From a virus: 64,000 nt of DNA. The position numbers were made by a program, and so were the translations under genes. Below the pieces are notes generated by a model that saw only the letters and a program-made list of their open reading frames with translations, was not told the origin of the DNA and made no database searches. The stretch lies in the IMG/VR virus record IMGVR_UViG_3300047321_000445, positions 33,311 to 97,310 of that record; one strand, written 5' to 3'. Below are positions 1,075 through 28,994 of this stretch, piece after piece (position 1 is the stretch's first letter; each line of letters begins with the position of its first letter).

Positions 1075-1172
1075 GCCCCTGGAGTTGCTGCGCCCCTGAC
1101 CCGGTCGAGTGGTCGGGGGCGCAGTCGCGTCCGGGGTCGGCTGCGCCCTGACCAGCAAGGTTTCCAGGAAGG

Positions 1173-1226
1173 GACTTGCTTTCACGTCGGGACGGGTGTA
1201 CCTTAAGTCTTGTGAACGGGGCACAC
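1173..1226 (+). promoter_or_regulatory. Repeated promoter/operator motif A, copy 1
   Basis: TTGCTT(1176)-17 bp-TACCTT(1199), spacer CACGTCGGGAC, downstream GTCTTGTGAACGGG. Confidence 0.8.
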
Positions 1227-1246
1227 CGCCCCCGAAGGGAGAGACG

Positions 1247-2086
1247 ATGATCGCCCACAAGCCCACCCTCGCCACGGTCCTCGCAGTCAGGCCGGCCCAG
1301 CTCACCAGCCTCACCCCGGTCGAGATCGACCGCATGAACCTGGTCCTCTGGACAGAGGTCGACCGCCGAGAGGCCGCCGTCGACCGGGCCGAGGACCGTC
1401 TCTTCAGCGCCCTGCTGATCGACAAGGAGAGCGTCCGCCACGGGCGCGGCTGGCGCCAGGTCTGGCCGGTCAGCGTGACCGAGGCGGAGCGGCTCGCCCG
1501 CGAACACCTCGACACGGGTTACGAGATCAGCGACCGCGACAAGCTGATGCGCGGCCTGCACGGCAACCGCTACGCCGAGCAGCTGGCCGCAGCAGTCGAC
1601 ACGCTGGTGGCCGGCCGGGCCGCGGTGAAGGAGCTCACCGGCGGTCCCGTCGAAGTCCTGGACGACGAGTACCGCCGTCGGGGCGGCTGGTCGCGCATGC
1701 ACCTCTGCCTCACTGACGGAGGCCACATCCACACCGGCCGCGAGTGCCCGAGCATCGGCCCCTCCACCCAGCTGGCATGGCTGCCCGAGGTCTCTGGCAT
1801 GGACTGGCGCGAGGCGTTCGAGACGGTGATCGCCAAGAGCATGGCGGGGAGCACCCAGGTGATCATGTGCACCAAGTGCTACCGGGACGCGCCCACCGAG
1901 TGGACCGAGAAGCAGGCCGACCCCAACGAGTGCCCCATGTCCCGCAAGGACGCGTTCGAGCACATGACGCCCAAGCAGCGCCGCCTGCACCGCAAGTACG
2001 CCACCTGCCCGGGGTGCCAGGAGGGCGTGAGCGTGACGAGCGCCTGGAAGTTCCGCAAGCACGGCAAGCCGCAGCGCGCGGTCTGA
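1247..2086 (+). CDS. Hypothetical protein with C-terminal Cys/His (Zn-binding) motifs
   Basis: RBS GGGAGA before ATG 1247; HIHTGREC, CTKC, CPGC motifs. Confidence 0.75.
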   Translation: MIAHKPTLATVLAVRPAQLTSLTPVEIDRMNLVLWTEVDRREAAVDRAEDRLFSALLIDKESVRHGRGWRQVWPVSVTEAERLAREHLDTGYEISDRDKLMRGLHGNRYAEQLAAAVDTLVAGRAAVKELTGGPVEVLDDEYRRRGGWSRMHLCLTDGGHIHTGRECPSIGPSTQLAWLPEVSGMDWREAFETVIAKSMAGSTQVIMCTKCYRDAPTEWTEKQADPNECPMSRKDAFEHMTPKQRRLHRKYATCPGCQEGVSVTSAWKFRKHGKPQRAV

Positions 2087-2170
2087 CCGGCAGCTGGCTG
2101 GGGCCTGGCACTCGACTTGCCAGGCCCCAGCCCCGGGCTCGGCCCCGGTCTGCGCGGGAGTCTTGGCGTC

Positions 2171-2220
2171 CGACTTGTTTTCACGTCGGGACGTATGTAC
2201 TCTAGGTCTTGTCAACGGAA
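2171..2220 (+). promoter_or_regulatory. Motif A promoter, copy 2
   Basis: TTGTTT(2175)-17-TACTCT(2198). Confidence 0.8.
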
Positions 2221-2241
2221 CACCGACCCACGGAGGACCCC

Positions 2242-2583
2242 ATGATGATCACCCTCGACCTCCCCGAGGCCCTGAGCTACGAGATCGTCTACACGGCCGC
2301 GACGACCTGCCTGGCCAACCGTCGCTCGGGCATCTTCGAGTCCATCTCCATCCCTGCCGCCGAGAACCCCGCCGACGGCTGGAACCTGCGCCTCGTGGCC
2401 CTGAACAAGAAGGACGGCAGCACGCTCCTGGTGGACCTGCTGCGCCCCGTGGACGAGCGCTCCCCGTTCGCCGCCAGCGCCCGCGAGCGCCTGGCCGGAG
2501 GCGAGCGCCTGGCCATGCTGCTGGACCTGCTGCCCGAGCAGGCGCGCGGCGAGGTCATCCGCATCCCGCTCACCCGGGACTGA
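2242..2583 (+). CDS. Hypothetical protein
   Basis: GGAGG RBS, GC3-rich codons. Confidence 0.75.
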   Translation: MMITLDLPEALSYEIVYTAATTCLANRRSGIFESISIPAAENPADGWNLRLVALNKKDGSTLLVDLLRPVDERSPFAASARERLAGGERLAMLLDLLPEQARGEVIRIPLTRD

Positions 2584-2663
2584 CCCACCCCCCCCAGCTC
2601 CGCCCCCGGCTACTCGACTTGGCCGGGGGCGGCCGCCCACCCACCCACCGGAAGGACCCCAGC

Positions 2664-3245
2664 ATGACGACCGCAGCCGCAGGCCTCGGCGGGCTCATCG
2701 CCCGCGCAGCCCCGTTCACCTCGTACCGCACGTACACGTACAACACAGACCCGAACGTCCCGGGCATCCAGGGGCTTGCCACGGTCGCCGAAGCCACGGA
2801 GCTGGTGCGCGCCCACGTGGCTGCTGACAGCCGGCTGCGCAGCACGGCGGCGACCCCCTACGGCGCGGTCATCCTGCACCAGGGCGACACGCATATCCGG
2901 CTGGAGCCGGGCATCGACGCTCGCCCCCAGCGGCTGACCGGGCGCCAGGCCGACGACCTGCTGCTGATCGGCCGTGTTCAGGACCGGGCGAAGGTCGTGT
3001 GGGAGCCGGCCAAGGGGTGGGCGACGGTCCAGGGCGGGGTGTGGCGCATCCCCGCGGTTTCCACGGAGCGGCTGGTCAGGCGTGGATGGATCGCCACGGA
3101 GGGCGCCGACGGGGCCCTGGTGACCGTCTCCCTGGCTGGGGTGGTCGCCCTGCAGTGGCGCTACCTCAAGGGCGAGCGGGTGTCGTCGACTGCGCGCTGG
3201 GCGGAGGACGTGGCCGAGCATGTCGTGGACGTATTCTCCTCGTGA
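2664..3245 (+). CDS. Hypothetical protein (possible C-terminal winged helix)
   Basis: GGAAGGA RBS; ERLVRRGWI...VSLAG pattern. Confidence 0.7.
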   Translation: MTTAAAGLGGLIARAAPFTSYRTYTYNTDPNVPGIQGLATVAEATELVRAHVAADSRLRSTAATPYGAVILHQGDTHIRLEPGIDARPQRLTGRQADDLLLIGRVQDRAKVVWEPAKGWATVQGGVWRIPAVSTERLVRRGWIATEGADGALVTVSLAGVVALQWRYLKGERVSSTARWAEDVAEHVVDVFSS

Positions 3246-3247
3246 CC

Positions 3248-3300
3248 CGACTTGCTTTAACGTCGGGACGCCTGTACCTTAGGTCTTGTGAACGGGGCAC
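3248..3300 (+). promoter_or_regulatory. Motif A promoter, copy 3
   Basis: TTGCTT(3252)-17-TACCTT(3275). Confidence 0.8.
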
Positions 3301-3328
3301 ACCGCCCCGACCGACCGAGGAGGACCCC

Positions 3329-3847
3329 ATGGCCATCACCACCGCGACCGCCACCGGCCAGGCCGAAGCCGACCGCCTGCGCGCCTCGGCCCGCCAGCAC
3401 GAAGCGGACGTGATCGAGTCCCGCGACCGCTGCGACACCGACGGCTTCCTCTCCCAGTGGGCGTCCGGCCGCATGGCCGGCCTGGACTACCTCGCGGCCG
3501 AGATCGCCGAGGCGGGCGGCAAGTGGGACTTCGGCGGCCTCTTCGACCTGGAGGGCAACCTGGTCCCGGCCATCCGGCTCCAGAACCGCTACGACGGCTG
3601 GTCCTGGAAGCTCCTGGACGAGCGCGGCCGGTGCGCTGGCTGGTTCAACGAGTCCAAGGCCAAGACCGAGGAGCGGCGCGTGGCCGCCCACGCCAAGCAG
3701 GGCTTCTACGTCGGCCGCGTCCGCGTCCCGGCCAAGGCCGAGATGCAGGGCGGCAACTACTTCTCGGTGCGGGCGGTCCCGGTCCGCCTGGACGAGGGCT
3801 GGGACCCGGAGGCCGAGATCCTCGACAACGGCCAGCCCACGGCCTGA
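3329..3847 (+). CDS. Conserved actinophage-type hypothetical protein
   Basis: GAGGAGG RBS; RCDTDGFLSQWASG motif. Confidence 0.8.
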   Translation: MAITTATATGQAEADRLRASARQHEADVIESRDRCDTDGFLSQWASGRMAGLDYLAAEIAEAGGKWDFGGLFDLEGNLVPAIRLQNRYDGWSWKLLDERGRCAGWFNESKAKTEERRVAAHAKQGFYVGRVRVPAKAEMQGGNYFSVRAVPVRLDEGWDPEAEILDNGQPTA

Positions 3848-3929
3848 CACCCCGCCCCTTGGCTGCGCCCGGCCACTCGACTTGGCCGGGCGTGGCCGCC
3901 CCCGCCACAAGCCCCAGGAGTAGAGCCCC

Positions 3930-4244
3930 ATGAGCAACCCGCCCACCTCCATCGCCGACCAGCGGCAGGCCTGGAAGAGACTTCGCCCCGAGGCTCTCGC
4001 CCAGCTCGCCACGACCATGAACGCCGCCGAGATAGCCGACGCCTTCGGCGTGGCCCGCCCGGCCGTGGAGCAGCGTCTCGCGTACCACGGTCTCGTCGCC
4101 TGCGTCGGTGGCCCCACGCCCCGCCGCAAGCTCGTCCACAACCGGCTCATCCACTGCCCCGCCACCACGACGCTCGGCACCGTCTGCGGCGCGCCCCAGG
4201 AGCCTGACGGCACCTGCCGGTGGGCCCACCAGCACACGGCCTGA
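3930..4244 (+). CDS. Hypothetical protein, HTH-like N-terminus with Cys/His C-terminus
   Basis: AGGAG RBS; AAEIADAFGVARPAVEQRL. Confidence 0.65.
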   Translation: MSNPPTSIADQRQAWKRLRPEALAQLATTMNAAEIADAFGVARPAVEQRLAYHGLVACVGGPTPRRKLVHNRLIHCPATTTLGTVCGAPQEPDGTCRWAHQHTA

Positions 4245-4341
4245 CACCCCCCTCCCTGGTTGCGCCCGGCCACTCGACTTGGCCGGGCGCAGCCGCCCCG
4301 CTCATCCATCCCCGCTCCATCACCCTCCCGAGGAGAGATCC

Positions 4342-4632
4342 ATGGACACCACCGCTGCATCCACGGCCGGCGCCGAGGACACCCGCCGCGACTGGGCCAT
4401 CGTCGCCATCACCTCCCAGTCCATCCACTGCGCCGACAGGCAGGCCGCCGAGGAGGTGGCTGAAGACCGCCCGCACCTCACGGTCGTCTCGCGGCCGCTC
4501 GGGGGCGAGTGGGAGCCGCTGTCGCAGCCGGTCGTCCCGGTCGACCTGGGGCCGCTGAGCGACGAGCAGCTGGCGGCGCTCCAGTTCGAGGCCGCGCGGC
4601 TGTTGGCGCGCCGTCAGGGCCGCGCGCTGTAG
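4342..4632 (+). CDS. Hypothetical protein
   Basis: GAGGAG RBS. Confidence 0.7.
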   Translation: MDTTAASTAGAEDTRRDWAIVAITSQSIHCADRQAAEEVAEDRPHLTVVSRPLGGEWEPLSQPVVPVDLGPLSDEQLAALQFEAARLLARRQGRAL

Positions 4633-4728
4633 TTCCTGCTGAGTCCTGCTGCGCCCCGGTCGACATGGCCGGGGCGCAGTCGCGTTCGGGGGTGGGCTGT
4701 GCCCTGACCAGCGGGTTTTCACCCCTAG

Positions 4729-4778
4729 GCTTGCATGCACGTCGGGACACGTGTACTCTAGGTCTTGTGAACGGGGCA
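4729..4778 (+). promoter_or_regulatory. Motif A promoter, copy 4
   Basis: TTGCAT(4731)-17-TACTCT(4754). Confidence 0.8.
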
Positions 4779-4805
4779 ACGCCCCACCCGACCGAGGAGG
4801 ACCCC

Positions 4806-5066
4806 ATGGACACCATCGCCGCCGACAACCTGACCGGCACCTACTACCCCGCCGCCCCCGGCGCCCGCACCTGGCGCGAGGCCCGCCCCCTCTACATCGG
4901 CCGCGACCGCGTCTCGGCCGAGATCACGGCCGACCGCCAGGGCTACGTCTTCGTCGGCCTGCACATGGTCTTCGCCGGGGCCATCCCCGCCGACGTCCAG
5001 GGCAGCGCCGACGTGACCCGCTGGGCCCGCGAGGTGGCCCTGTCCACGCTCACGCTCGCCGCCTGA
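4806..5066 (+). CDS. Hypothetical protein
   Basis: GAGGAGG RBS. Confidence 0.75.
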   Translation: MDTIAADNLTGTYYPAAPGARTWREARPLYIGRDRVSAEITADRQGYVFVGLHMVFAGAIPADVQGSADVTRWAREVALSTLTLAA

Positions 5067-5138
5067 CCCACCATCCGCCCGCCGCGCCCCGGCCGCTCGA
5101 CTAGCCCGGGGCGCGGCACCCACCCCGAGAGGAACCCC

Positions 5139-5660
5139 ATGGCCATCGCAGACCTGAAGCTGCTGCCCGCCGTCGCCTTCGACCGCCCCACCCAGGACGG
5201 CATGAAGCCGCTCCCCGAGGGCTACGACCCGAGCCGGCTGACGATCGTCCGCGCCGACCAGGTGCGCACTGGGGACCTGGTCGTCGGCAGCGTCGACCAG
5301 CCCCTGAAGCGCGGCAGCCTGCTCCGCTGGGCGACGTACCTGGCGGCCGCGTACGTCGCGCAGCCGGGCCCGTACGAGGCCGACTGCGCGTCCTGCCGGG
5401 CCTGGACGTCCACGCCCGTGCCGGATGCCGAGTGGGTGTCCCTGGCCCCGCACGTCCCGCAGCTCGCGGACGAGCTGATCTCCATCGTCCCGGCGCCCGA
5501 GCCGGTGGAGGCCGCACCGCGGCCGTGCGTGCACACCTGCACCTGCGAGAACGGCCGCCTGCGGCAGACGACCCGCAGCTTCTACCCGGCCGCCATCTGC
5601 GGCGACTGTCACCGCCGTCCGTGCGGCGCCTGCCGTGACGCGGCCCGCTCGACCCACTGA
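5139..5660 (+). CDS. Hypothetical protein with Cys-rich C-terminus
   Basis: GAGAGGA RBS; several CxxC motifs. Confidence 0.7.
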   Translation: MAIADLKLLPAVAFDRPTQDGMKPLPEGYDPSRLTIVRADQVRTGDLVVGSVDQPLKRGSLLRWATYLAAAYVAQPGPYEADCASCRAWTSTPVPDAEWVSLAPHVPQLADELISIVPAPEPVEAAPRPCVHTCTCENGRLRQTTRSFYPAAICGDCHRRPCGACRDAARSTH

Positions 5661-5729
5661 TCCCACCTCACGGCTGCGCCCCGGCCACTCGACTTGGCCG
5701 GGGCGCAGCACCCACACCGAGAGGACACC

Positions 5730-6305
5730 ATGCCCACCTTCACCTTCCCCAGCGGCGCGACCGTCGAGGCGCCCGACGGACTGCCCCTGTGTGAGCGGCC
5801 CGAGACCGTCACGGAGGACGTCGGCCGTTCCATCCTGGTCGGCCTGACCCGCAGCGACCGACCGGTCTTCTCCACCTTCTCCTGTGCCGCTTACGCCGCC
5901 CTCGGTCGCCTGTTCACCATGCGGGGGGACGTTGCCTACGACCGCCGTCGGGCCGAGCGGCTGGAGGCCCGCGGCCGGACCTGGCAGGCGGGGAACGTGC
6001 GCCGCCATGCCGACGAGCGGGAGGCGCGCAACGAACGGCTCCTGGCGCGCATGGTGGCCGACCCGGCGCCGTGCACGTGCGTGATCCCTTACGTGCCCGC
6101 TGTCGAGCTGGCTGAAGAGGTCGGGGTTCTCAAGGCTGACGTCCTGGAGAAGATCCGCGATCGTGCCGACCGGATGAGGGCGCTCGGGGGGCGGGACGTG
6201 GAGCAGCTCGTTTTCCGCCTGGGCCCCGACGGTGAGGTGCTGGTGGCGCCGATTACGGCTCTGTCGCTGCGGATGCACTTCGCCCAGCCTGCGCACCTGC
6301 GCTGA
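5730..6305 (+). CDS. Hypothetical protein
   Basis: GAGAGGA RBS. Confidence 0.7.
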   Translation: MPTFTFPSGATVEAPDGLPLCERPETVTEDVGRSILVGLTRSDRPVFSTFSCAAYAALGRLFTMRGDVAYDRRRAERLEARGRTWQAGNVRRHADEREARNERLLARMVADPAPCTCVIPYVPAVELAEEVGVLKADVLEKIRDRADRMRALGGRDVEQLVFRLGPDGEVLVAPITALSLRMHFAQPAHLR

Positions 6306-6407
6306 CGCCTGACCCCGGACGCAATACGGCCGTCTGCTGCTTCTCGACTAAGCGGCAGACGGCCGGCCCCCACCGTAGCAAGACTGAACCCCCGGAAGGA
6401 ACCGTTC

Positions 6408-7052
6408 ATGAGCACGACTACGCCCGCCAGACCGGACGTGCCCGCTCTCGCCCACGAGACCGCGCGCATCCTCGGCACTGACTGGCACGCCCAGCCGGAC
6501 ACGGACTGGGTCAGCGCCTGGGCGCTGCACCACCGGGACGGGCGCCGCGTCCGCCTGTACGGCCCGGAGTACGGCAACGAGGGCCGGCTGTACATGGAGG
6601 GACTGCTGCCGAACGCGCCCGAGGACGAGCGGCCGGACCGGACCGGCCTGGACTCCGGGAACATCTCCGTCGCTGCGTCCTCCCCGGCCCGCCGTGTGGC
6701 CGGGGAGATCACCCGGCGCCTGCTGCCCAAGCTGACCCCGGCGTGCGAGGAGTACCGCCGTCGGCTGGAGGAGCTGCGTACGGCGGAGCGAGCCCGCGTG
6801 GCGGCTGCCCGCAGCCTGGCGGAACTGCCGGGCCTGTCGGAGCCGCGCCGGAACTACCACGACCGGAGGGTGACGGCGTATCACCTGGCCTGGGACGGGC
6901 CGAGGCGCGGCGAGTGGCACGGGGCGAAGCCGTCCGCGCGGATCGACGTGGACGCAGACCGGGAGACGGCTGAGCCGCACGTGTGCATGGAGCTGCGGGG
7001 GCTGTCGCCCGAGCAGGCCGAGCGGGTGCTGCGGGCGCTCATCGAGCCGTAG
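6408..7052 (+). CDS. Hypothetical protein
   Basis: GGAAGGA RBS. Confidence 0.7.
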   Translation: MSTTTPARPDVPALAHETARILGTDWHAQPDTDWVSAWALHHRDGRRVRLYGPEYGNEGRLYMEGLLPNAPEDERPDRTGLDSGNISVAASSPARRVAGEITRRLLPKLTPACEEYRRRLEELRTAERARVAAARSLAELPGLSEPRRNYHDRRVTAYHLAWDGPRRGEWHGAKPSARIDVDADRETAEPHVCMELRGLSPEQAERVLRALIEP

Positions 7053-7113
7053 GTCTGAGCGTCGTGGGTGTGCCCCGGCCGGGTTGGTCGGGGCACACCC
7101 ATATCTGCCTCAC

Positions 7114-7166
7114 GTCCCGACTTGCTTTCACGTCGGGACTCATGCATGCTTGGTCTTGCGAACGAC
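7114..7166 (+). promoter_or_regulatory. Motif A promoter, copy 5 (perfect GTCCCGAC-N10-GTCGGGAC inverted repeat)
   Basis: TTGCTT(7122)-17-CATGCT(7145); preceded by a hairpin at 7066-7100. Confidence 0.75.
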
Positions 7167-7191
7167 ACCAGCGACCAGGGATCGGAGATCC

Positions 7192-7896
7192 ATGCCTCAC
7201 GCACGCGCTCAGCTCATCGGCGGCCGCGACCGCCAGTGCGACGCCACCGCCGTCTACACGAAGCACAACAAGGTCCGCGCCTACGTCCTCCTGGACGGCA
7301 TCGGCGACACCACCGACGTCCACCTCTGGACCCTGCTCACCGCCCGCCGCCTGGCCTACCAGGCGGCAAACGACGCCGACGCCGAGGCCGGACTGCGCAC
7401 AGTCCACGCCCGGATCGCCGAGGAGCGCGCCCCGCTCGGCTTGGCCGCAGACTTCGAGCCGTCCGCGGTTGCCGTCGTCGCGGTCGCCATCCCCGGCGAG
7501 CTGCTCCAGGTCGCATGGTGCGGCGACGCCCGCGCCTACGTCCTGCCCGAAGGCGGCGAGTTGCGGCGGCTGACGACCGACCACAACAAGCGCCAGTGGC
7601 TGATCGACCAGGACCTCCCGTTCGGCCCGTACGACCGTAACCAGGTCCTCTCGTACCTCGGCGACACCGCCGAGGACGCGTCGCAGCGGATCGGGACGGC
7701 ACTCGGTCCCGCCTCGGGCCGCCTGCTGCTGGCCTCGGACGGCGCGTACGAGCCCCTGGAGGACTCGTGCATGGACCTGTCGGCCTACCTCGTGGGAAGC
7801 CCGCGTAAGGCCGCCAGGGACTTCACGCAGGCCGCCATCGACCGCGGCTCGGCCCGCCCGGACAACGCCACGGCCCTGGTCGTCGACTTCGGCTGA
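7192..7896 (+). CDS. PP2C/PPM-family Ser/Thr protein phosphatase
   Basis: RDRQCD, LLDGIG, WCGDARAY, LTTDH, LASDG and DNAT motifs. Confidence 0.9.
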   Translation: MPHARAQLIGGRDRQCDATAVYTKHNKVRAYVLLDGIGDTTDVHLWTLLTARRLAYQAANDADAEAGLRTVHARIAEERAPLGLAADFEPSAVAVVAVAIPGELLQVAWCGDARAYVLPEGGELRRLTTDHNKRQWLIDQDLPFGPYDRNQVLSYLGDTAEDASQRIGTALGPASGRLLLASDGAYEPLEDSCMDLSAYLVGSPRKAARDFTQAAIDRGSARPDNATALVVDFG

Positions 7897-7979
7897 TCCC
7901 CGCTCACCGTCCGCCCCGGCTACTCGACTTGGCCGGGGCGGGCCGCCTCTTCCCACCACACCCACTTGAACGGAGAACC

Positions 7980-8549
7980 ATGGACGCTCACGAGTCCCGC
8001 AACTTCCTGGCCGGCCTGGCCAAGAGACTCCCCGCCGAGGTCACCGTCGAAGACCGCGAAGGGCCGGTCACCCGCGAGGCACTGCTGCGGGTCATCCGTA
8101 ACGACCTGCTGCCGGTCCTGGTCCGCAACCCGCTGCACCGCCACCCGCGCAGGCAGCTCCCCGCCCTCTACGGCCCGGTCGCGGCCGGCCTGCGTCAGGC
8201 CCTGGTCGCCTACAGCTCGGGCCGTGGAGAGGACTTCCTGCCCCGGCTGGAGCAGGCTCTCGAGGCCGCGGCGGCCGCCCGCAAGGCGGACGACTACGAC
8301 CCCGCCACGAAGTACGTGACCGCGACGTCCTGGGCAGTCTCGTGCACCCTGGGCGCGCACATCGACGGCGCGATCCTCAACGTCCACGACCTGGACCACG
8401 AGGCGGTCAACGGCCACGGCGGCTGGGGCGTGGTCGTCTGGCACCCGGTCCACGACAAGCGGCAGTTCCCCAGCCAGGACGCAGCTCGCGCCTACGCCCT
8501 GCGGATGGGGCTGCTGCAGCGCTTCGTGCCGAGCCGCGTGCTGGTCTGA
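7980..8549 (+). CDS. Hypothetical protein
   Basis: GGAGA RBS. Confidence 0.7.
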   Translation: MDAHESRNFLAGLAKRLPAEVTVEDREGPVTREALLRVIRNDLLPVLVRNPLHRHPRRQLPALYGPVAAGLRQALVAYSSGRGEDFLPRLEQALEAAAAARKADDYDPATKYVTATSWAVSCTLGAHIDGAILNVHDLDHEAVNGHGGWGVVVWHPVHDKRQFPSQDAARAYALRMGLLQRFVPSRVLV

Positions 8550-8642
8550 CGGTCCCTCGCTGCGCCCCGGTCACTCGACTTGACCGGGGCGCAGCCGTGT
8601 TCGGGGACGGGCAGGCAGCACTCTCCATCTTTCTTGGGGAAC

Positions 8643-8692
8643 CGACTTGCTTTCACGTCGGGACACGTGCATACTAGGTCTTGCGAACGGGG
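8643..8692 (+). promoter_or_regulatory. Motif A promoter, copy 6
   Basis: TTGCTT(8647)-17-CATACT(8670). Confidence 0.8.
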
Positions 8693-8731
8693 AACGGAAA
8701 GTCCGGCCCCACCAACACCGAGGAGCACACC

Positions 8732-9409
8732 ATGGCTAAGACCCCCGCCTACACGATCACCACCACCGACGACACCAAGGTGGACGAGCGGACCGAGGGC
8801 AAGGCGGCCGACAAGCTGGCCCAGAAGCTCACCGCCGAGACCGGCCTGGTCCACCGGGTCTACACCCCGACCGGCAAGCTCCGCCTGGAGACCGAGGTCG
8901 TCGAGCCGGCCCCGGCCGATGAGGTCCCCTCGGTCGACATCAGCGAGGTCCCCGAGGCCGCGCCGGTCGAGGCCGAGGCCGAGGCGGAGGTCGAGGAGGT
9001 CGTGGAGGCCGAGGTCGAGGCCGAGGAGGTCGAGGAGGCCCCCGAGACGGCCCCGGTCGAGGTCCGCGAGATGAACATCGTGGTGCCCAGGGACTTCGTC
9101 TCCTACGCGACGCTGATGGACCTGCTCAAGAACGACGACGACGCGGTCCGCGAGGACGCCGCGTCCGAGTGGGCCTTCCGCCTGGAGGTCTACAAGCGGC
9201 GCACGAACGCCAAGGACGCCTCGAAGCGGATCGTCGGCCCGGCCATGGCGGCGGCGCTGGAGCGCGGCGAGACCACCGACGGGCGGACCATCGCCTCCCT
9301 GGCCAAGCGGGGCCTGGTGGAGCGCGGGGAGGGTCTGGCCTTCACGGTGAACGAGGCCGGGCGCGCGGCCCTGGCCGCTGCGGTCGCCGCGGTGACCGAC
9401 ACCGAGTGA
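8732..9409 (+). CDS. Hypothetical protein with Glu-rich acidic linker and winged-helix-like C-terminus
   Basis: GAGGAG RBS; EAEAEAEVEEVVEAEVEAEEVEE; GRTIASLAKRGLV. Confidence 0.75.
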   Translation: MAKTPAYTITTTDDTKVDERTEGKAADKLAQKLTAETGLVHRVYTPTGKLRLETEVVEPAPADEVPSVDISEVPEAAPVEAEAEAEVEEVVEAEVEAEEVEEAPETAPVEVREMNIVVPRDFVSYATLMDLLKNDDDAVREDAASEWAFRLEVYKRRTNAKDASKRIVGPAMAAALERGETTDGRTIASLAKRGLVERGEGLAFTVNEAGRAALAAAVAAVTDTE

Positions 9410-9469
9410 TCGTCCCTGAGGTTGCGCCCCGGCCACTCGACTTGGCCGGGGCGCGACTGCTTCCCTGGC

Positions 9470-9516
9470 CGACTTGCTTTCACGTCGGGACGTGTGTACT
9501 CTAAGTCTTGTGAGGG
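9470..9516 (+). promoter_or_regulatory. Motif A promoter, copy 7
   Basis: TTGCTT(9474)-17-TACTCT(9497). Confidence 0.8.
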
Positions 9517-9554
9517 ACCGGAACGACCGGCCCACCAACCACCAGGAGGACGCC

Positions 9555-9932
9555 ATGACCGCCACCGCCACCGAGACCCTGGCCCCCGGCACCGTCGTGC
9601 GCGCCCCCCTCTACCGCAACGGCCAGCCCGTCGGCCGACCCCGCCGCGGCATCGTCCTGCGCACCTTCGCCAGCGACGGCAACCCCAAGTCCGGCTACCT
9701 CGTGTGGTTCTACACGCTCGGGGCGGCCCACAAGGACGGCCAGGGCGACACCAGCACGGTCGGCCTGGTCTTCCCGCGCGAGGCCGAGCGCGTCGGCACC
9801 GTCGCCGACATGGGCGACCGGGTGCTGGCCAACGCCGGTAAGGGCCTGCGCGACTGGCCCACCGGCCGCCAGGCCTGGAACGAGATCTACCGCGTCTACG
9901 TCGCCCGGAAGCGCGCGGCCGCGCAGGCCTGA
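9555..9932 (+). CDS. Hypothetical protein
   Basis: AGGAGG RBS. Confidence 0.75.
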   Translation: MTATATETLAPGTVVRAPLYRNGQPVGRPRRGIVLRTFASDGNPKSGYLVWFYTLGAAHKDGQGDTSTVGLVFPREAERVGTVADMGDRVLANAGKGLRDWPTGRQAWNEIYRVYVARKRAAAQA

Positions 9933-10014
9933 CGGCCCCCCTCGCCGGGCCCCGGCCACTCGACTTGGCCGGGGCCCGGCACCCCACCACCCTCCGGAAG
10001 GAACTGAACCGACC

Positions 10015-10536
10015 ATGAACGTCACCGTCTCGCTCCCGTGCGAGTCCACCGCCGAGGCGAACCTGATCCGCAACGCCGTCAACCGCTACCGGCACGTCCT
10101 CAAGGACCAGGGCGTCGACCCGCGCGACTTCGCCCCGCCCAGCGACGAGGGCGCCGGGTTCGGCTGGGACGCCGTGCAGCGCACCGCAGGCGACATGAGC
10201 GCGGGGAGCGTGACCCACATGTCCCCGCGCATGGCGCGCGCCATCCACCTCGCGTTGCAGGACAAGGCGGCCTGGACCCGCGACCCGGACGCGCAGCGCA
10301 TCGCGGCCGTCCTGATGTCCCGGATCAACCGCCTGATCATCCCGCCGAAGGACGGATGGGTCTGCCCCTACATGCCGTTCGGCCACGCCTGGACGGGCGA
10401 CACCGTGTGCCGGTTGTGCGGCGAGACCCGCACCGTCTCCGAGGTCATCACGTCGCTGCTCGCCGGACTGCCCGGCTTCAGCGAGGAGCGTGCAGCCGCC
10501 CTGGTGGCCCGGCACGTCGCCGAGGCCACGGCCTGA
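10015..10536 (+). CDS. Hypothetical protein with C-terminal Cys/His motif
   Basis: GGAAGGA RBS; CPYMPFGHAW...CRLC. Confidence 0.7.
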   Translation: MNVTVSLPCESTAEANLIRNAVNRYRHVLKDQGVDPRDFAPPSDEGAGFGWDAVQRTAGDMSAGSVTHMSPRMARAIHLALQDKAAWTRDPDAQRIAAVLMSRINRLIIPPKDGWVCPYMPFGHAWTGDTVCRLCGETRTVSEVITSLLAGLPGFSEERAAALVARHVAEATA

Positions 10537-10614: not shown

Positions 10615-11364
10615 TCAGGCGCCGGGAGCCGCCTCGAACGTGTACTCGTAGCCGACGACCATGCGGCGGGGCAGGCACCATTCCCCGTACTCGATGACCC
10701 CCTGCCCGTCCCACAGCCGGTGCGCGCCGGCCAGGATGGGCGCCCCGATCGGCAGGGCGAGGAAATTCGCTTCACGGGCGTCGGCGTCCCGGCCGTGGAC
10801 GTCGTCGCGGCCGTTGGTGATGCGGCGTCCGGTGGCCTGCTGGATCCTCAGCAGCAGTCCGGGCGACGTGTGCGGGGACGTCGACAGCAGCTCGGGAACG
10901 CTCCCGGCGAGGTGCGCCGGGTACCAGGTGACGAAGAGCCCGGTTCGCTGCTTGCCCTTGCCGGTGTGCCACTGACGGCGCACCACCTGGTCGCCCTCGC
11001 CGAGGTCGAGGAGCTCGGCCACGTACTGCGGGGGTTTGACCATCTCGGCCGCTGTGACGATCATCGTCTCGCCCTCGGCGAGGACGCTGCCGGTGCGCAG
11101 GACGCGGGTGATCCGCTCGTAGGAGCTGGGGACGACCTCGGGTGCGTTCGCAACGAACGTGCCGCGGCGGCTGGTGGTGATGTAGCCCTCCACCTGGAGC
11201 TGGTCGATTGCCCGCCCGAGGGTGGCGATCGAGACGCCGTGCGACTCGGCCAGCTCTCGCTGTCCGGGCAGCTTGGCGCCCTCCTGATAACCGTCCTCGC
11301 CGTCGAGGATGCTGCGTCGGATGTCGGCCGCTACGCGCATGTACGGGTGTTCGGTCTCGGGCAT
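10615..11364 (-). CDS. GntR/HutC-family repressor (KorSA/TraR-like)
   Basis: PYMRVAADIRRSI..GAKLPGQRELAESHGVSIATLGRAIDQL winged HTH plus UTRA-like C-terminus; located in a tra/spd element. Confidence 0.9.
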   Translation of the reverse strand: MPETEHPYMRVAADIRRSILDGEDGYQEGAKLPGQRELAESHGVSIATLGRAIDQLQVEGYITTSRRGTFVANAPEVVPSSYERITRVLRTGSVLAEGETMIVTAAEMVKPPQYVAELLDLGEGDQVVRRQWHTGKGKQRTGLFVTWYPAHLAGSVPELLSTSPHTSPGLLLRIQQATGRRITNGRDDVHGRDADAREANFLALPIGAPILAGAHRLWDGQGVIEYGEWCLPRRMVVGYEYTFEAAPGA

Positions 11365-14210: not shown

Positions 14211-14254
14211 GTCCCGATTGACATGCACGTTGGGTGGGGTGTACGGTCATGGCA
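14211..14254 (+). promoter_or_regulatory. Motif A variant promoter, probably leaderless
   Basis: GTCCCGA-TTGACA(14218)-TGCACGTTGGG..-TACGGT(14242); ATG 6 nt after the -10 box and no RBS. Confidence 0.75.
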
Positions 14255-15096
14255 TGAAGACGCCGCCCGAGACACCACAGCTGCCCGAAATCTTCGCCGA
14301 ACCCTTCGGCCACCTGACCGCGCTCACACCCGGCCTGGACGAAACGGGCCAGCTCGTGGACCGGGTCAAGCGCCTCGGCCCCGCCCTCGACGCATGGCCC
14401 CAGCTCCAGAAGGCCATCAAGGCCCTGCGCGCCCTCGACGTCCTCGCCGTCCACGAGGCCGGCCGGACCGTCCCCGACCTGGTCAACGACCTCGGCATCA
14501 CACGCGGCCGCGTCTACAGCCTGATCAAGGCCGCCCGCGAGGACCGAGACATCGAGACGAAGGCACAACTGCCCGCCCCGTTCGACACGCTGCTCGCCCC
14601 GCTCCTCGAGGACGCCGGAACGCTGGAGCGCGCGCAGCGGCTCGGACGCATCCTCGCCGACGGCGTCCTCAACGACGGCTCCCGCTACCTGGCCTGGACC
14701 CGCTCGCACGACGTGCTCACGCTGCACCGCAGCCACGGCATCAAGTACGAGACCCTGGCCCCGCTGATCGGCCTGACCAGCGACCGGACCGCGCACCTCG
14801 CCGACATGGCCAAGGGCACCTACAGCCGCAAGCTGCCAGCCGAACGGCGCGAGCGCGACCCCAACGCCCCCCAGCGGAACAAGCCCGGCGAGAGCGCGCA
14901 GGCCGTCGAGGACGCCATGCGCGCACTGGAAAGCCCCTTCAGCATGGCCGAGGTGACCGAGGCGTCCGGCTTCAAGCCGGGCCAGGTGCAGCGTGTGCTG
15001 AAGACGCTCCGGGCCCAAGGCAAGCTGCGCGACGCCGGCCCCCTCCCGAAGGGGGTCGGTGGCCGCAACGTGGCCACGTTCGAGCTGATCGGCTAG
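14254..15096 (+). CDS. DNA-binding protein with three HTH-like segments (candidate repressor)
   Basis: TVPDLVNDLGITRGRVYSLI; KYETLAPLIGLTSDRTAHL; SMAEVTEASGFKPGQVQRVLKTL. Confidence 0.75.
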   Translation: MKTPPETPQLPEIFAEPFGHLTALTPGLDETGQLVDRVKRLGPALDAWPQLQKAIKALRALDVLAVHEAGRTVPDLVNDLGITRGRVYSLIKAAREDRDIETKAQLPAPFDTLLAPLLEDAGTLERAQRLGRILADGVLNDGSRYLAWTRSHDVLTLHRSHGIKYETLAPLIGLTSDRTAHLADMAKGTYSRKLPAERRERDPNAPQRNKPGESAQAVEDAMRALESPFSMAEVTEASGFKPGQVQRVLKTLRAQGKLRDAGPLPKGVGGRNVATFELIG

Positions 15097-15374: not shown

Positions 15375-15403
15375 TTTCCCTTCTCCGTGATTACTGGTGA
15401 CCA

Positions 15404-15435
15404 GACTTGCAAATACGCTAGGACGTGTGTACTTT
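15404..15435 (+). promoter_or_regulatory. Motif A-related promoter
   Basis: GAC-TTGCAA(15407)-17 bp ending GGACGTGTG-TACTTT(15430). Confidence 0.7.
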
Positions 15436-15482
15436 CGTGGTGAGGGGGCGGGTCCACCGCCCCCGACGCCGAGGGAGGACAC

Positions 15483-15758
15483 ATGGAGTCGATTCACATC
15501 CCCACCGAGGAGCGCCCTCGCGTGGGCGAGGACGTCACGTACAAGGTCGGCCGCCACACCGTGAGGGCCGTTGTCACCCGCCAGTTCGTGAACGAGGCGG
15601 AAGACGTGGGCGTCGTCGTCTACGGCGACCAGGTGGGGAGCGTCCACCCCGTGGCGCCCGCGCTGCTCAACGTGCAGGCGCCGGACCTCGACAAGCTGCA
15701 CGCCGACGCCCTCGTAGAGGACGAGCTGCGCGCCCTCCTCGACGAGATCGACCACTGA
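15483..15758 (+). CDS. Hypothetical protein (moron-like)
   Basis: GGGAGGA RBS, own promoter and terminator. Confidence 0.8.
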   Translation: MESIHIPTEERPRVGEDVTYKVGRHTVRAVVTRQFVNEAEDVGVVVYGDQVGSVHPVAPALLNVQAPDLDKLHADALVEDELRALLDEIDH

Positions 15759-17173: not shown

Positions 17174-17551
17174 TCAGGGCTGCACGTGCAAGCCCGGTCC
17201 CATCGCCGAGAGCCGCACCCATCCCCGGGCCTTCTCCTCGTAGATGTCGACCAGGCCCGCGAACGCAGGCTTCGTGCGCCGCAGCTCGGCAGCCCATCCG
17301 GCCGTCAGCTCCCGGCCGTCGACCAGGACCTGCCCGTCCAGGCCGATCGCCGTGGAGAGGACCCCGCCACCCTTCGGCAGCTTGTGATAGCTGACGTCGT
17401 TGCCGTCCTCCATCAGCCCGGCGCGCACGGCCTCATCCCACGCCGGCTTCAGCCGCTCCAGCTCACTGACCGGGCCGAAGCTGTCCGGCGCCTCCGACCG
17501 CTTGCGCTTGTCGCGTCGCTGCTGCTTGGCGCGCTTCGCGTCACGTCCCAT
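17174..17551 (-). CDS. Hypothetical protein
   Basis: AAGGAG RBS before ATG 17551. Confidence 0.7.
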   Translation of the reverse strand: MGRDAKRAKQQRRDKRKRSEAPDSFGPVSELERLKPAWDEAVRAGLMEDGNDVSYHKLPKGGGVLSTAIGLDGQVLVDGRELTAGWAAELRRTKPAFAGLVDIYEEKARGWVRLSAMGPGLHVQP

Positions 17552-17576
17552 CAGAACTCCTTTGTCCGGGGGAAAT

Positions 17577-18542
17577 CTACTGGTTGTTCCGGGGACGGCA
17601 GTCACGACACCGGCCCGGCGCCGCCGCCCGAAACGCCCGCTCGCAGCCGTCACACGTCTGCAACGGCAACACCGGCGCGCGCTCCGTCTTAGGCACGCAC
17701 GCGGCGGGAGCAGCAGGCAGGAAGTCCGGATGCAGCCGGTGCAGGTATACCGCCGCGAGTGACCGCGCAGTGCTCGTTTCCGCCGTCAGCTGCTGCTGCA
17801 GCGACGTCTCGGACCACCCGGCAGCGAGCGCATCAGCCGCCAGTCCGACCAGCACAGCCCGCTGCTTGCGGCCCGGTCGACGGCCCGCGTACGGCAGTGC
17901 GTCCACGAACACCGCAGCGGGCGTTTCGTGCTGTGGCGTAGCGCCGCCCCCTCCGCCTCCTCCCTGGACGTCAGCGGCCGCGGGCTGCGGCTGCTCACCA
18001 GGGGGAAGGGGGGAGGTAGGGATCACTTCGGGATCTATAAGGGATTGAGCGTCAACCTGGGGCGGGGTCGGCGTCACATTGACTCCGGGTCGGCTCCAAT
18101 TTGACTCGGGGTAGGCGTCATTCTGATGTATCAGCAGGTCAGAGGGCTCCGGGGCGTCCGGGGTGCCAGCCAGCGAGCCGGCCGGGTCGCCCTGGCTGTC
18201 GTCCTCGAAGGTGATGGCTTCGATCAGGTTGTCCCGGTACTGCCGCGGCTCCTGCCGCATGGTCGCCAGTAGCGGCAGGTTCACCCGGGTCAGGTTCGAA
18301 ATCGGCTCGCCCGTCCTCGGGTTCACCCGGCGCACTGACTTGACCAGACCGCGCGTGGCCAGCTTGCGCTTCACCCGCTGCACCGTGCTGCGGGACGTGC
18401 CGCAGTCGGCCGCGAGCCGGGCCTCACTCGGCCAGCAGTAGCCGTGCATGTCGGTGTAGTTCGTCAGCGCGAGCAGCAGCAGCTTTTCACTGCCGTCCAA
18501 GCCGTCGGCCTCGAACACGAGGCTCATGTGGGCAACGCTCAC
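17577..18542 (-). CDS. Phage/plasmid replication initiator-like protein (N-terminal HTH_36)
   Basis: EKLLLLALTNY...CWPSEARLAADCGTSRSTVQR; C-terminal CDGC..CRDC; internal iterons. Confidence 0.8.
   Translation of the reverse strand: MSVAHMSLVFEADGLDGSEKLLLLALTNYTDMHGYCWPSEARLAADCGTSRSTVQRVKRKLATRGLVKSVRRVNPRTGEPISNLTRVNLPLLATMRQEPRQYRDNLIEAITFEDDSQGDPAGSLAGTPDAPEPSDLLIHQNDAYPESNWSRPGVNVTPTPPQVDAQSLIDPEVIPTSPLPPGEQPQPAAADVQGGGGGGGATPQHETPAAVFVDALPYAGRRPGRKQRAVLVGLAADALAAGWSETSLQQQLTAETSTARSLAAVYLHRLHPDFLPAAPAACVPKTERAPVLPLQTCDGCERAFRAAAPGRCRDCRPRNNQ
18042..18129. repeat. Four tandem 22-bp iterons (putative origin)
   Basis: ggattgagcgtcaacctggggc / ggggtcggcgtcacattgactc / cgggtcggctccaatttgactc / ggggtaggcgtcattctgatgt. 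Confidence 0.65.
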
Positions 18543-19618: not shown

Positions 19619-21205
19619 GTGACCGCCGCAGTCTCGGCCCGTCTGCTGAGCACCGCCACGGCCGCTCCCGTTCCGGGACCGCCGACCGCCGTTCCGGGCA
19701 CGGCGGCTGCCACTTCGGTTCCGTCCCGCTCGGTTCCCGACGCGGTCTCCGTCGTTCCGGACACGGCGCCTGCCGTTCCCGACGCGGCCCCCGCCGTTCC
19801 GGGCGCGGCCTCCGAGCGTTCCGGACGCGCCCTGTCCGCCGTCGCCATCGTCGGCGGTGCCATCCTCGCCGGGATCGGTTTCACCGGCTCCTACAACGCG
19901 TTGAGGGACCTGGCTTTCAAGCACGGCTTGGGCACCTTCTCCTACGCCTTCCCGGTCGGTATCGACGCCGGGATCGTGGTCCTGTACGTGCTGGACCTGT
20001 ACCTGATCCGTCGTCGCTCTCCGTGGCCGCTGCTGCGGTCGCTGGCCCACCTGCTGACCGTCGCCACCATCGTCTTCAACGCGGCCTCAGCTGACGGGCC
20101 GGCCAGTGCCGACCCGATCGGCACCGCGATGCACGCGGTCATCCCCGTCATGTTCGTCGCCTCCGTGGAGGCCGCCCGCAGGCTCGTCGTGCGGGTGTCT
20201 GACTTTGAGGACGGCCGTGACAGTCAGGGCATCCCGCTGACCCGCTGGGCGCTCTCCCCGGCCCCCACGTACGCCCTGTGGCGCCGCATGAAGCTGTGGG
20301 ACAAGCAGTCCTACCAGGAGGTTGTGGCGCTGGAGCAGGAGCGCACCGTGTACAAGGCCATGCTCCAGCGCCGGTACGGCAGGCGCTGGAAGAGGCGCGC
20401 CCCGAAGGACGAAATGCTGCCCCTGACTATGGCCCGCTACGGCCTGACAGTTGACGAAGCCCTCGCCCTGCCCCGGCAGGCGCTGGAAGCCGAGCAGCTG
20501 CGCAAGGAGCAGAACGAGGCCCTGGAGCTGGAGGCGCAGCAGCGCGCCGAGGAGCGCGCCGCCGCAGCCCGCATCCACAGCATCAACACGCAAGGTGACG
20601 TCGAGGCGGCCACGCACGCGACCGCGGCGAGGGTCGACGCGGCGAAGTCGGCCGCGAACGCGACCCGCACAGAGGCCGAGCTCGCCGCCGAGACGCAGTC
20701 CCGCATCGCCCAGGAGACCGCGCAGGCGGTCGAGTCGGCGGAGGCCGCCGAAGCTCGACGGCGCGCAGCCGAAGCCGAGCGGGCCGCAGCCGAAGCGCGA
20801 GCCGTCGCAGCCGAAACGAACCAGGCCGCTGCCGGAATGGAAGAGGCCGCGTCCGAAGCGCGCGCCCGTGCCGCCGAGAACGCCCGGCGCGAGGCCGTAG
20901 CACGGGCGGAACTTGAGACCGCTGAGCGGACCGCAGCCGAAGCCAGGCAGCGTGCAGCCGAAGCCAGGGAGCGTGCGGCCGGAATCGAACTCCGTGCAAC
21001 CGAAGCGGAGGATGCCGCCCGCCTCACGCCCCGGGAACGGACCGTCCGCAAGGTCGCCCGCATGGCACTGGTCGAGCACGACGGCCGCCTCACACAGCTC
21101 CCGCTCGAAGCCATCACCGAAGCGTTCGGGGTGTCTTCCACGACCGCCTCGGAGTACCGCAAGGAAGCCGGCGCGCTGATCGCCGACGGATACCGGATCC
21201 ACTGA
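19619..21205 (+). CDS. DUF2637 / SpdB-like plasmid-spreading membrane protein
   Basis: IGFTGSYNALRDLA, FPVGIDAGI, ATIVFNA, RWALSP...LWRRMKLW; four hydrophobic segments, coiled coil, C-terminal HTH. Confidence 0.85.
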   Translation: MTAAVSARLLSTATAAPVPGPPTAVPGTAAATSVPSRSVPDAVSVVPDTAPAVPDAAPAVPGAASERSGRALSAVAIVGGAILAGIGFTGSYNALRDLAFKHGLGTFSYAFPVGIDAGIVVLYVLDLYLIRRRSPWPLLRSLAHLLTVATIVFNAASADGPASADPIGTAMHAVIPVMFVASVEAARRLVVRVSDFEDGRDSQGIPLTRWALSPAPTYALWRRMKLWDKQSYQEVVALEQERTVYKAMLQRRYGRRWKRRAPKDEMLPLTMARYGLTVDEALALPRQALEAEQLRKEQNEALELEAQQRAEERAAAARIHSINTQGDVEAATHATAARVDAAKSAANATRTEAELAAETQSRIAQETAQAVESAEAAEARRRAAEAERAAAEARAVAAETNQAAAGMEEAASEARARAAENARREAVARAELETAERTAAEARQRAAEARERAAGIELRATEAEDAARLTPRERTVRKVARMALVEHDGRLTQLPLEAITEAFGVSSTTASEYRKEAGALIADGYRIH

Positions 21206-21223
21206 CCAGAGAAGGGACCAGCC

Positions 21224-21499
21224 GTGTACGGCTCCCGTCGCTCCACCCTCATTGAGGCCGCGGCTGCCATCGGCCAGCGTGTCGTCGCCGCCGCCCGCCT
21301 GTTCTTCAACCTCGCGACCAGCTTCTCCGACTGGTCCCCGACCGGCTTGTACGCGGCGGCCGCCACCGCCCGCTACATGGCCGCGCACCAGCTGATCGAC
21401 CAGGCAGAACGCCAGGTCGACGGCGACCCCGACGTCACCTTGGACCAGGTCCGCCAGCCGCTGTGGTTCGGCGCTACGACGCTTCACGAGGAGCAGTGA
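21224..21499 (+). CDS. Hypothetical protein (transfer operon)
   Basis: AAGGGA RBS; coupled to the next gene. Confidence 0.65.
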   Translation: MYGSRRSTLIEAAAAIGQRVVAAARLFFNLATSFSDWSPTGLYAAAATARYMAAHQLIDQAERQVDGDPDVTLDQVRQPLWFGATTLHEEQ

Positions 21500-28977: not shown

Positions 28978-28994
28978 GAAGGGAGCAACAACCC

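Follow-up and report, generated by a model that had tools for sequence, protein, structure and literature searches.

Why would a single phage element carry many copies of one promoter, each with an inverted repeat around its -35 box, and which protein would read them? The question is raised by a 64,000-nucleotide stretch of viral DNA (hereafter the window), which covers bases 33311-97310 of the IMG/VR virus record IMGVR_UViG_3300047321_000445, a linear record of 97,310 bp with a CheckV completeness of 89%. The element, whose G+C content is about 70% in the window, is a tailed Streptomyces-type phage of about 100 kb that also carries conjugation-type (TraB-type) genes; it is distant from all deposited phages, with the closest terminase at 58% and no nucleotide match among them. 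Among sequencing runs, a nearly complete copy turned up only in a rhizosphere metagenome, possibly the source of the record, and no RNA run was listed as containing the sequence. A preliminary description, drawn from the letters of the window, had reported seven near-identical strong promoters and had proposed that they answer to a single repressor, fire together on entry into a naive cell and drive host-takeover or anti-defence genes. The answer that we favour, if only slightly when it is taken as a whole, is that these would be early promoters used by the host sigma factor and gated by an element-encoded repressor, for which a protein of 280 amino acids (aa) encoded in the same region is the candidate.

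Promoter copies and the dyad around their -35 box

All seven sites were found on the + strand at the places described, the positions originally given marking the CGAC just upstream of the -35 hexamer (coordinates are listed in Table 1); the 17-bp spacer is present in each of the seven, and the perfect inverted repeat ascribed to copy 5 is there as well. The copies are all real, but their number had been set too low, as the whole record holds 15. Indeed, when the record was scanned with a position weight matrix built from the sites, these 15 scored 13-81 bits against at most 1.3 for shuffled sequence, a gap that excludes chance. Seven of the further sites lie just left of the window (record 29118-, 29982-, 30494-, 31273-, 31287+, 31694+ and 32863+, the sign giving the strand), the eighth is a weak copy at window 15407, and a 16th, variant copy precedes the leaderless gene 14254-15096, which encodes the candidate regulator. 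Four of the 15 sites point leftward and 11 rightward, diverging from a back-to-back hub at record 31273/31287; the same whole-record scan found none in the structural half of the record or in gene interiors. Each of the 15 stands 70-85 nt upstream of the ATG of a frame with a G+C content at third codon positions (GC3) of 0.93-0.99, the sites beyond the first seven included, which also precede high-GC3 genes with a Shine-Dalgarno (SD) site.

The anatomy of the site was read from a logo of n = 30 sites, 15 from the element itself and 15 from a relative in Streptomyces cavernae that is described below. From left to right, it comprises GWCCCGAC at -43 to -36 (the left arm of the inverted repeat), TTGyTT at -35 to -30, TCAC, GTYGGGWC at -25 to -18 (the right arm), three free positions, TG at -14/-13, TAcTnT at -12 to -7 and aGGTCTTG at -6 to +1. 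TTG is found at -35 in 29-30 of the 30 sites and is followed by yTT, so that the hexamer fits the TTGACN-type consensus at 3/6 positions; the -10 box, with TG directly upstream, keeps T-12 in 27/30, A-11 in 29/30 and T-7 in 28/30. A TAnnnT box behind a spacer of 16-19 bp is what promoters of the host principal sigma factor (HrdB/sigma-70) display, and the spacer measures 17 bp here (18 bp at the regulator gene). The epithet “strong” finds no backing: the two hexamers fit the E. coli consensus at 6/12 positions only (3/6 each, TTG and TAnnnT being kept). All in all, we regard the sites as very probably promoters.

The surroundings of the promoters are just as regular. In 24-26 of the 30 sites, a GC stem-loop from about +4 to +7 opens the leader, constant in its position and variable in its sequence, and the SD comes next; by analogy with 5' stabiliser hairpins known elsewhere, this stem-loop may play a role in mRNA stability. 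A further GC hairpin of 13-17 bp lies 20-40 nt upstream of most promoters (window 1100-9450), with a CTCGACT loop in 6 of 15; these hairpins are probably terminators that insulate the units from one another. A generic sigma-70/terminator scan flagged neither the cassette promoters nor most of the hairpins, and it misses the latter because they have no T-tracts.

Is the inverted repeat itself maintained, or do the copies simply resemble each other because they were made recently? Across the 30 sites, the mean pairwise identity is highest in the right arm (0.86), followed by the -35 hexamer (0.77), positions -14 to -7 (0.70), the left arm (0.61) and positions -6 to +1 (0.54), and falls to 0.34 at -17 to -15 and 0.30 in the upstream flank, the last two values being background level at the G+C content of the element. 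Because conserved blocks thus alternate with positions at background identity, the sites owe their likeness to selection and not to recent copying. At the true offset, 5.63 of the 8 positions of the left arm agree with the reverse complement of the right arm, against 1.5-3.4 at 30 other offsets; counting both elements, the arms are complementary at 8/8 positions in 5 of the 30 sites and at 6/8 or more in 16, most copies having a degenerate upstream arm. The consensus left arm is the reverse complement of the right one, and where one arm departs from it, the other accepts the corresponding bases (T/A at the second position, G/A versus C/T at the sixth).

The sites with perfect arms are instructive as to what is kept and what is not: TTG is retained, and the tail of the hexamer as well as TCAC and the spacer are free to vary. 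Moreover, two orthologous promoter pairs, those of the PP2C unit and of the 97-aa unit, have a perfect dyad both in the element and in S. cavernae. Since perfect-arm sites vary in their centre and still keep TTG, and since orthologues keep their dyads, the arms and the TTG are separate constraints, and this pattern is the one expected of an operator laid over the -35 box. Symmetry, offset control and block identities all bear out the inverted repeat of the preliminary description as a selected dyad of fixed geometry. A dyad-symmetric, multi-copy, element-confined site that overlaps the core promoter is also what marks a phage repressor-operator regulon, and it is likely that the dyad is the binding site of a protein.

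Distribution of the motif, its candidate reader and the sister elements

A strict pattern of the site gave one match among 185,579 species-representative genomes, namely Streptomyces cavernae SYSU K10008, where 15-17 sites lie in one 25-kb stretch around the same divergent hub; the reversed control pattern gave none. This stretch is syntenic with the record at 14.9-48.4 kb, at 70-80% nucleotide identity. A degenerate pattern searched in 400 further Streptomyces genomes returned one lone match, versus four for the control pattern. No match was obtained in deposited phages and PLSDB plasmids by BLAST of one site, nor in IMG/VR by exact-pattern scans, and metagenome contigs gave just 13 single, low-scoring matches. 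Judging by these genome, phage, plasmid and metagenome scans, the motif is peculiar to the element family. It is therefore no host regulon, and any reader of the motif should be element-encoded.

Two other cassette heads were seen in S. cavernae. One, complete with promoter, right arm of the dyad, leader stem-loop and SD, stands alone on another contig (C52; L014:3880-4060), and no homologue of any protein of the record was found around it. In the other (L012:1402 region, S. cavernae 311402), the TTG of the -35 box is replaced by GTG, with right arm and -10 box intact; this head may be a decaying or very weak promoter.

Which protein of the element could read the dyad? Our candidate is the 280-aa protein, which combines an N-terminal helix-turn-helix (HTH), at about residues 56-96, with a C-terminal winged helix. 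Its family matches are HTH_IclR, HTH_28 and MarR_2 in Pfam and “HTH DNA binding protein” in PHROGs; in the AlphaFold model, a confident one with a predicted local distance difference test score (pLDDT) of 81.6, residues 208-280 match winged-helix repressors of the MarR/IclR/Fur type (Z 9.5). Foldseek gave no match to the whole chain, and the wide structural search covered the C-terminal domain alone. An internal repeat was considered and rejected, as BLASTP finds no alignment between the two halves. The family is a rare one, with nine members among 5.8 billion proteins: the protein was found in one of 61 genomes searched, that of S. cavernae, the very one that bears the motif, and a search of IMG/VR found nothing. 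The S. cavernae orthologue is 77% identical; the homology there is limited to a small island, on either side of which the sequences are unrelated.

The promoter of this gene is a variant of the array promoters. It reads GTCCCGA-TTGACA-TGCAC-GTTGGGTG-GGG-TG-TACGGT, 6 nt, ATG, is conserved in S. cavernae, and retains the N10 spacing of the arms despite a one-base shift in the register of the hexamer; it is also the sole further match of a matrix restricted to -43 to -7 in 97 + 80 kb of the two elements. The transcript would be leaderless, and a consensus -35 box together with a weakened right arm is the arrangement expected of a negatively autoregulated repressor gene. The regulator promoter lies about 4.7 kb downstream of the last promoter of the array, and a weak isolated cassette copy (15407) follows the regulator gene both in the element and in S. 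cavernae. An element-encoded DNA-binding protein with an operator at its own promoter is thus at hand in the candidate 280-aa protein; that it is the protein which binds the dyad we hold to be an even chance.

Other readers were considered. The GntR/UTRA protein (10615-11364, - strand) and the WhiB-like, HTH_23 and HU-like proteins were set aside, as none has a homologue in the 80-kb motif-bearing stretch of S. cavernae. Among about 45 cassette and neighbouring proteins, Pfam and PHROG searches revealed no other DNA-binding domain. The products of record 17276-17851, of the 8732-9409 paralogues and of 3930-4244 look like winged helices by eye only, and sequence searches against the PDB gave nothing for them. 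A replication/recombination module upstream of the promoter array (Table 1) encodes the WhiB-like and HU-like proteins, together with a C5 cytosine methylase that has only a match of 26% identity in the S. cavernae stretch.

As for the GntR protein, kil-kor control of the KorSA/TraR-like kind, as in Streptomyces conjugative elements, would have it bind the repeated site; the element's GntR lacks a homologue in the S. cavernae stretch. Palindromes of the form GTCC-NN-GGAC occur near its gene and before the DUF2637/TraB transfer genes (window 11479, 11947, 19545 and 19567); they look like a second, separate operator set, of a type distinct from the dyad. Their 4-bp cores are the outer four bases of the dyad arms.

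In order to see how relatives are organised, we retrieved 80 viral loci through homologues of the protein encoded at 3329-3847, and several of these loci have highly repeated intergenic words of their own. The closest relative is the provirus G402 (IMG/VR UViG 2934965791_000001; 99,284 bp), with a terminase at 67% and tail genes in common. Its promoters, about 21 in number, read TTGCG-TGTAGCTACA-...-TAGTC-TGTAGCTACA, and behind every one of them come a stem-loop, an SD and an ATG. Here, TGTAGCTACA is a 10-bp palindrome of which each promoter has two copies, one in the spacer (about -30 to -21) and one over the start site (about -7 to +3); a palindrome over the transcription start would typically be a repressive layout. 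The sister elements suggest that one cassette layout may be built on unrelated regulator/operator pairs, and G402 has no homologue of the 280-aa protein.

G402 has a divergent control region of its own (68300-68420; L114:8001-8294, - strand) with four TGTAGCTACA palindromes, one of them in the spacer of the promoter of a 98-aa gene. With its start 7 nt downstream of a TACGGT -10 box, this gene is leaderless; it diverges from a standard cassette promoter. The sequence of its product suggests a ribbon-helix-helix protein; neither Pfam nor Atlas gave a match for it, and its single-sequence model is poor (pLDDT 62.6).

More distant loci present other arrangements. One of them (L031:6500-11000) has at least nine near-identical leaderless promoters (about 13 as suggested by word counts), consisting of TTGACA, about 17 nt and the palindrome GTGCAAT-G-ATTGCAC, which covers the -10 box and the start site, and each gene there starts with ATGACGACGAC. 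Leaderless promoters with the conserved spacer word GGGTTGGGTAA occur in another (L057:9100-15700); in a third (L109:6600-10500), CCCTACCACGGAG stands directly before the start codons, in a manner resembling the start-associated sequences of cluster K mycobacteriophages, and in a fourth (L038), CTCACGTGAG is found in hairpin loops.

Repression, activation and other explanations

How would such a cassette work? We picture it as a self-contained unit, made of the upstream GC hairpin, a host-type promoter, the start-site block, the 5' stem-loop, the SD and one to four small genes. The promoters would be early (accessory-gene) promoters that use, as we infer, the host principal sigma factor. With the -35 hexamer at the centre of the dyad G(T/A)CCCGAC-N10-GTYGGG(A/T)C, from -43 to -18, an element-encoded protein bound to the dyad would occlude the -35 box, keeping the units silent as long as the element is carried (as prophage or plasmid) and letting all of them come on together when the protein is absent or inactivated. 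Firing on entry into a naive cell, as in the preliminary description, would be expected by analogy. The 280-aa protein would be the most likely binder, and its own dyad with the weakened right arm would then provide negative autoregulation. That the bound protein represses, considered apart from its identity, seems to us reasonably probable.

One has to keep in mind several points that weigh against this reading. About half of the sites have a poor left arm, and a simple HTH dimer would not usually read 8-bp arms whose centres are 18 bp apart. A possible second HTH of the 280-aa protein, at residues 165-186, shows only as helices in the structural model, and the two halves of the protein have no sequence similarity. 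Many orphan genes share the distribution of the regulator gene, and the co-occurrence argument rests on two elements only. Lastly, the target promoters have a conserved, non-consensus TTGyTTTCAC versus the perfect TTGACA of the regulator's own promoter, a difference that fits activator-dependent targets too.

The last point leads to the alternative that survives best, namely that the sites are activator-dependent (middle-type) promoters: the 280-aa protein, made first from its own leaderless consensus promoter, would bind the dyad and the central block and recruit or re-programme the host RNA polymerase at promoters with a deliberately poor -35 box, in a manner resembling class II activators or the T4 MotA boxes centred near -30. 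Target hexamers at 3/6 with conserved non-consensus bases, next to a perfect TTGACA at the regulator gene, are what this alternative would predict; there are also weak leads from the N-terminal part of the protein to sigma-70 region-4-like and HTH_23 phage proteins, and a weak PHROG match to “late transcriptional activator” (E value 0.0015). Against it, the Atlas scores (0.86) are under the level that counts, and a protein lying over -43 to -18, on both sides of the retained TTG, should compete with sigma region 4. The TTG moreover stays the same in sites whose centre is otherwise variable, and in G402, where the cassettes are built alike, the second palindrome covers the start site, which is a repressive position. 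We deem activation unlikely on balance. Of the single element-encoded repressor that had been proposed, what stands is one candidate HTH protein common to both motif-bearing elements, with a dyad at its own promoter; what does not stand firm is the sign of its action, on account of the activator alternative.

A bolder proposal, which we find more doubtful still, keeps the 280-aa protein and changes the way in which it would read the site. As a single-chain, multi-module reader, it would touch separate blocks of the 45-bp unit with its HTH(s) and its winged helix, the contacts being each of the two arms, 18 bp from one another, and the start-site block; the protein would be the master switch of a plug-in cassette standard that relatives have re-equipped with unrelated regulator/operator pairs, the repeats doubling as exchange joints. 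In a variant of this proposal, the protein would activate by replacing -35 recognition.

Could the extended conservation simply tune the host RNA polymerase, possibly with an alternative host sigma factor, without any dedicated regulator? Long consensus sequences are known from the early promoters of T4 and T5, and G-TAC at -13 to -10 recalls the GGGTAC boxes of the SigB type; the TG/G right before TAC is invariant, the conserved block spans the start site, and other relatives have lineage-specific conserved spacers in their repeated promoters. However, contacts with polymerase leave unexplained the dyad symmetry, the alternatives shared by the two arms and an N10 that is independent of the hexamer register. 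The absence of the motif from the 400 host-genus genomes scanned means that no host promoter class uses it, and in the sister element an unrelated palindrome takes the place of the conserved one within an unchanged layout. We consider this explanation quite improbable.

Least probable of all is that the repeats are mainly recombination joints, whose cassette heads and hairpin tails would let elements swap accessory genes and whose likeness would come from homogenisation: gene content between promoters does differ from S. cavernae while the promoters persist, a paralogous gene pair stands at both ends of the array and a lone full cassette head sits on another S. cavernae contig, but the background identity at -17 to -15 and in the flanks implies old, position-specifically constrained copies, every copy lies at promoter distance from a start codon, and such a role is in any case compatible with regulation and no alternative to it.

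Cargo genes and comparison with known systems

Besides the promoters and the regulator gene, Table 1 gives the units that the seven promoters precede and the landmarks of the element. Taken together, the cargo comprises a PP2C phosphatase, DUF3560 and DUF6409 proteins and some 25 orphans, of which several have homologues of unassigned role in actinophages. The host-takeover or anti-defence character that had been attributed to these genes found no backing, as no such family is recognisable among the cassette proteins in Pfam or PHROG. The products of 8732-9409 and of record 28429-29034 (- strand), which both start with MAKTPAYTITT, are paralogues encoded on opposite strands; they head the second-from-right and the leftmost cassettes of the array, respectively, and S. 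cavernae has a single copy.

Table 1. Features of the promoter array and landmarks of the element. Positions are those of the window unless they are marked as record positions.
Feature	Position	Strand	Details
Promoter/operator copy 1 and leader	1168-1246	+	degenerate left arm; -35 TTGCTT at 1176; right arm GTCGGGAC 1186-1193; TG and -10 TACCTT 1199-1204; conserved start-site block; 5' stem-loop; SD
Unit 1	1247-2086	+	279-aa orphan (phrog_2433); GC3 0.94
Promoter/operator copy 2 and leader	2167-2241	+	-35 TTGTTT at 2175
Unit 2	2242-3245	+	two orphans: 2242-2583, 2664-3245
Promoter/operator copy 3 and leader	3244-3328	+	-35 TTG at 3252; left arm 7/8
Unit 3	3329-4632	+	172-aa protein (phrog_5855; many actinophage homologues), then 3930-4244, 4342-4632
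Promoter/operator copy 4 and leader	4723-4805	+	-35 TTGCAT at 4731; left arm poorest, 3/8
Unit 4	4806-7052	+	four orphans: 4806-5066, 5139-5660, 5730-6305, 6408-7052
Promoter/operator copy 5 and leader	7114-7191	+	perfect dyad GTCCCGAC-N10-GTCGGGAC 7114-7139; -35 TTG at 7122; -10 CATGCT
Unit 5	7192-8549	+	PP2C-type phosphatase 7192-7896; orphan 7980-8549
Promoter/operator copy 6 and leader	8639-8731	+	-35 TTG at 8647
Unit 6	8732-9409	+	225-aa protein with acidic linker
Promoter/operator copy 7 and leader	9466-9554	+	-35 TTG at 9474
Unit 7	9555-10536	+	DUF6409 protein 9555-9932; orphan 10015-10536
Variant promoter/operator of the candidate regulator	14211-14253	+	GTCCCGA(T) 14211-14218; -35 TTGACA 14218-14223; right arm GTTGGGTG 14229-14236; TG; -10 TACGGT 14242-14247; 6 nt, then ATG
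Candidate regulator	14254-15096	+	280 aa; N-terminal HTH and C-terminal winged helix
Isolated weak copy and leader	15399-15482	+	-35 TTGCAA at 15407; right arm GCTAGGAC; precedes 91-aa acidic protein 15483-15758
FtsK/TraB-like protein	22170-24293		DUF2637 protein also in window
Large terminase	34423-35922
Portal fused to MuF domain; long tail genes	in window
C5 cytosine methylase	record 19755-21440		left of window
WhiB-like protein	record 21437-21886		left of window
HU-like protein	record 23849-24220		left of window
RusA, SSB	record		left of window

The design principle is textbook phage biology: repeated early promoters with one repressor operator are classical, as in lambda-type immunity regions. 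In the Streptomyces phage phiC31, the c repressor is reportedly associated with conserved inverted repeats (CIRs) and near-identical early promoters. The two systems have in common a temperate Streptomyces phage, an early promoter repeated many times, a dyad operator read by a single phage repressor (here a candidate) and early units bounded by hairpins. It differs in its operator, a compact 17-bp palindrome in phiC31 and 8-bp arms 10 bp apart around the -35 box here; the element also has host-sigma-like promoters, an unrelated candidate regulator from a family of nine and TraB-type transfer genes. Closer at hand, G402 shares the phage backbone, the succession of hairpin, promoter, 5' stem-loop, SD and small genes, and a leaderless gene behind an operator-bearing promoter; unlike the element, it has as operator the 10-bp palindrome present twice per promoter, and its neighbouring regulator is the 98-aa protein, with no homologue of the 280-aa one.

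Mycobacteriophages offer two further points of comparison. The stoperators of cluster A are asymmetric, 13-14 bp long, mostly located inside transcribed regions, and they stop elongation (PMC9283540, PMC6550527). Common to both cases are tens of copies of one repressor site (here a putative one) along a phage genome, a repressor that may use two different domains on one site, and a specificity that differs among relatives; unlike stoperators, the sites here are dyads found at promoters only, with none in genes or in the structural region. Cluster O phages have more than 30 copies of a 17-bp dyad repeat, with a predicted dimeric binder, together with repeated SigA-like promoters (PMC4351075); there, however, most repeats lie off the promoters and a control of initiation was excluded by the authors, whereas here every copy embraces a -35 box.

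In archaeal viruses, conserved early regulatory sequences precede anti-defence genes, and the motif can serve to predict this class of small immediate-early genes (PMC11065993). One promoter with its regulatory motif likewise marks many small genes of unassigned function in the element; the domain of life and the type of promoter are different, and no anti-defence family is recognisable here. The arrangement also departs from Aca-repressed anti-CRISPR promoters, since the regulator lies outside the regulated operons, with a promoter of its own, and the cargo again shows no recognised anti-defence family.

What is new here is the geometry of the operator, the rare regulator family with its leaderless, putatively autoregulated gene, and the evidence for a layout shared on unrelated regulator/operator pairs. 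In practical terms, an orthogonal switch for engineering Streptomyces could be assembled from the promoter, the operator and the regulator, and a related copy usable for experiments is present in S. cavernae SYSU K10008, a cultured strain. For the biology of the element itself, the motif singles out a block of 15 kb, whose genes, about 30 and mostly orphans, it marks as one co-regulated and probably early set, which makes this block a ready list for testing host-takeover and counter-defence functions in Streptomyces; for the family, the comparison of its relatives illustrates how immunity specificity is swapped.

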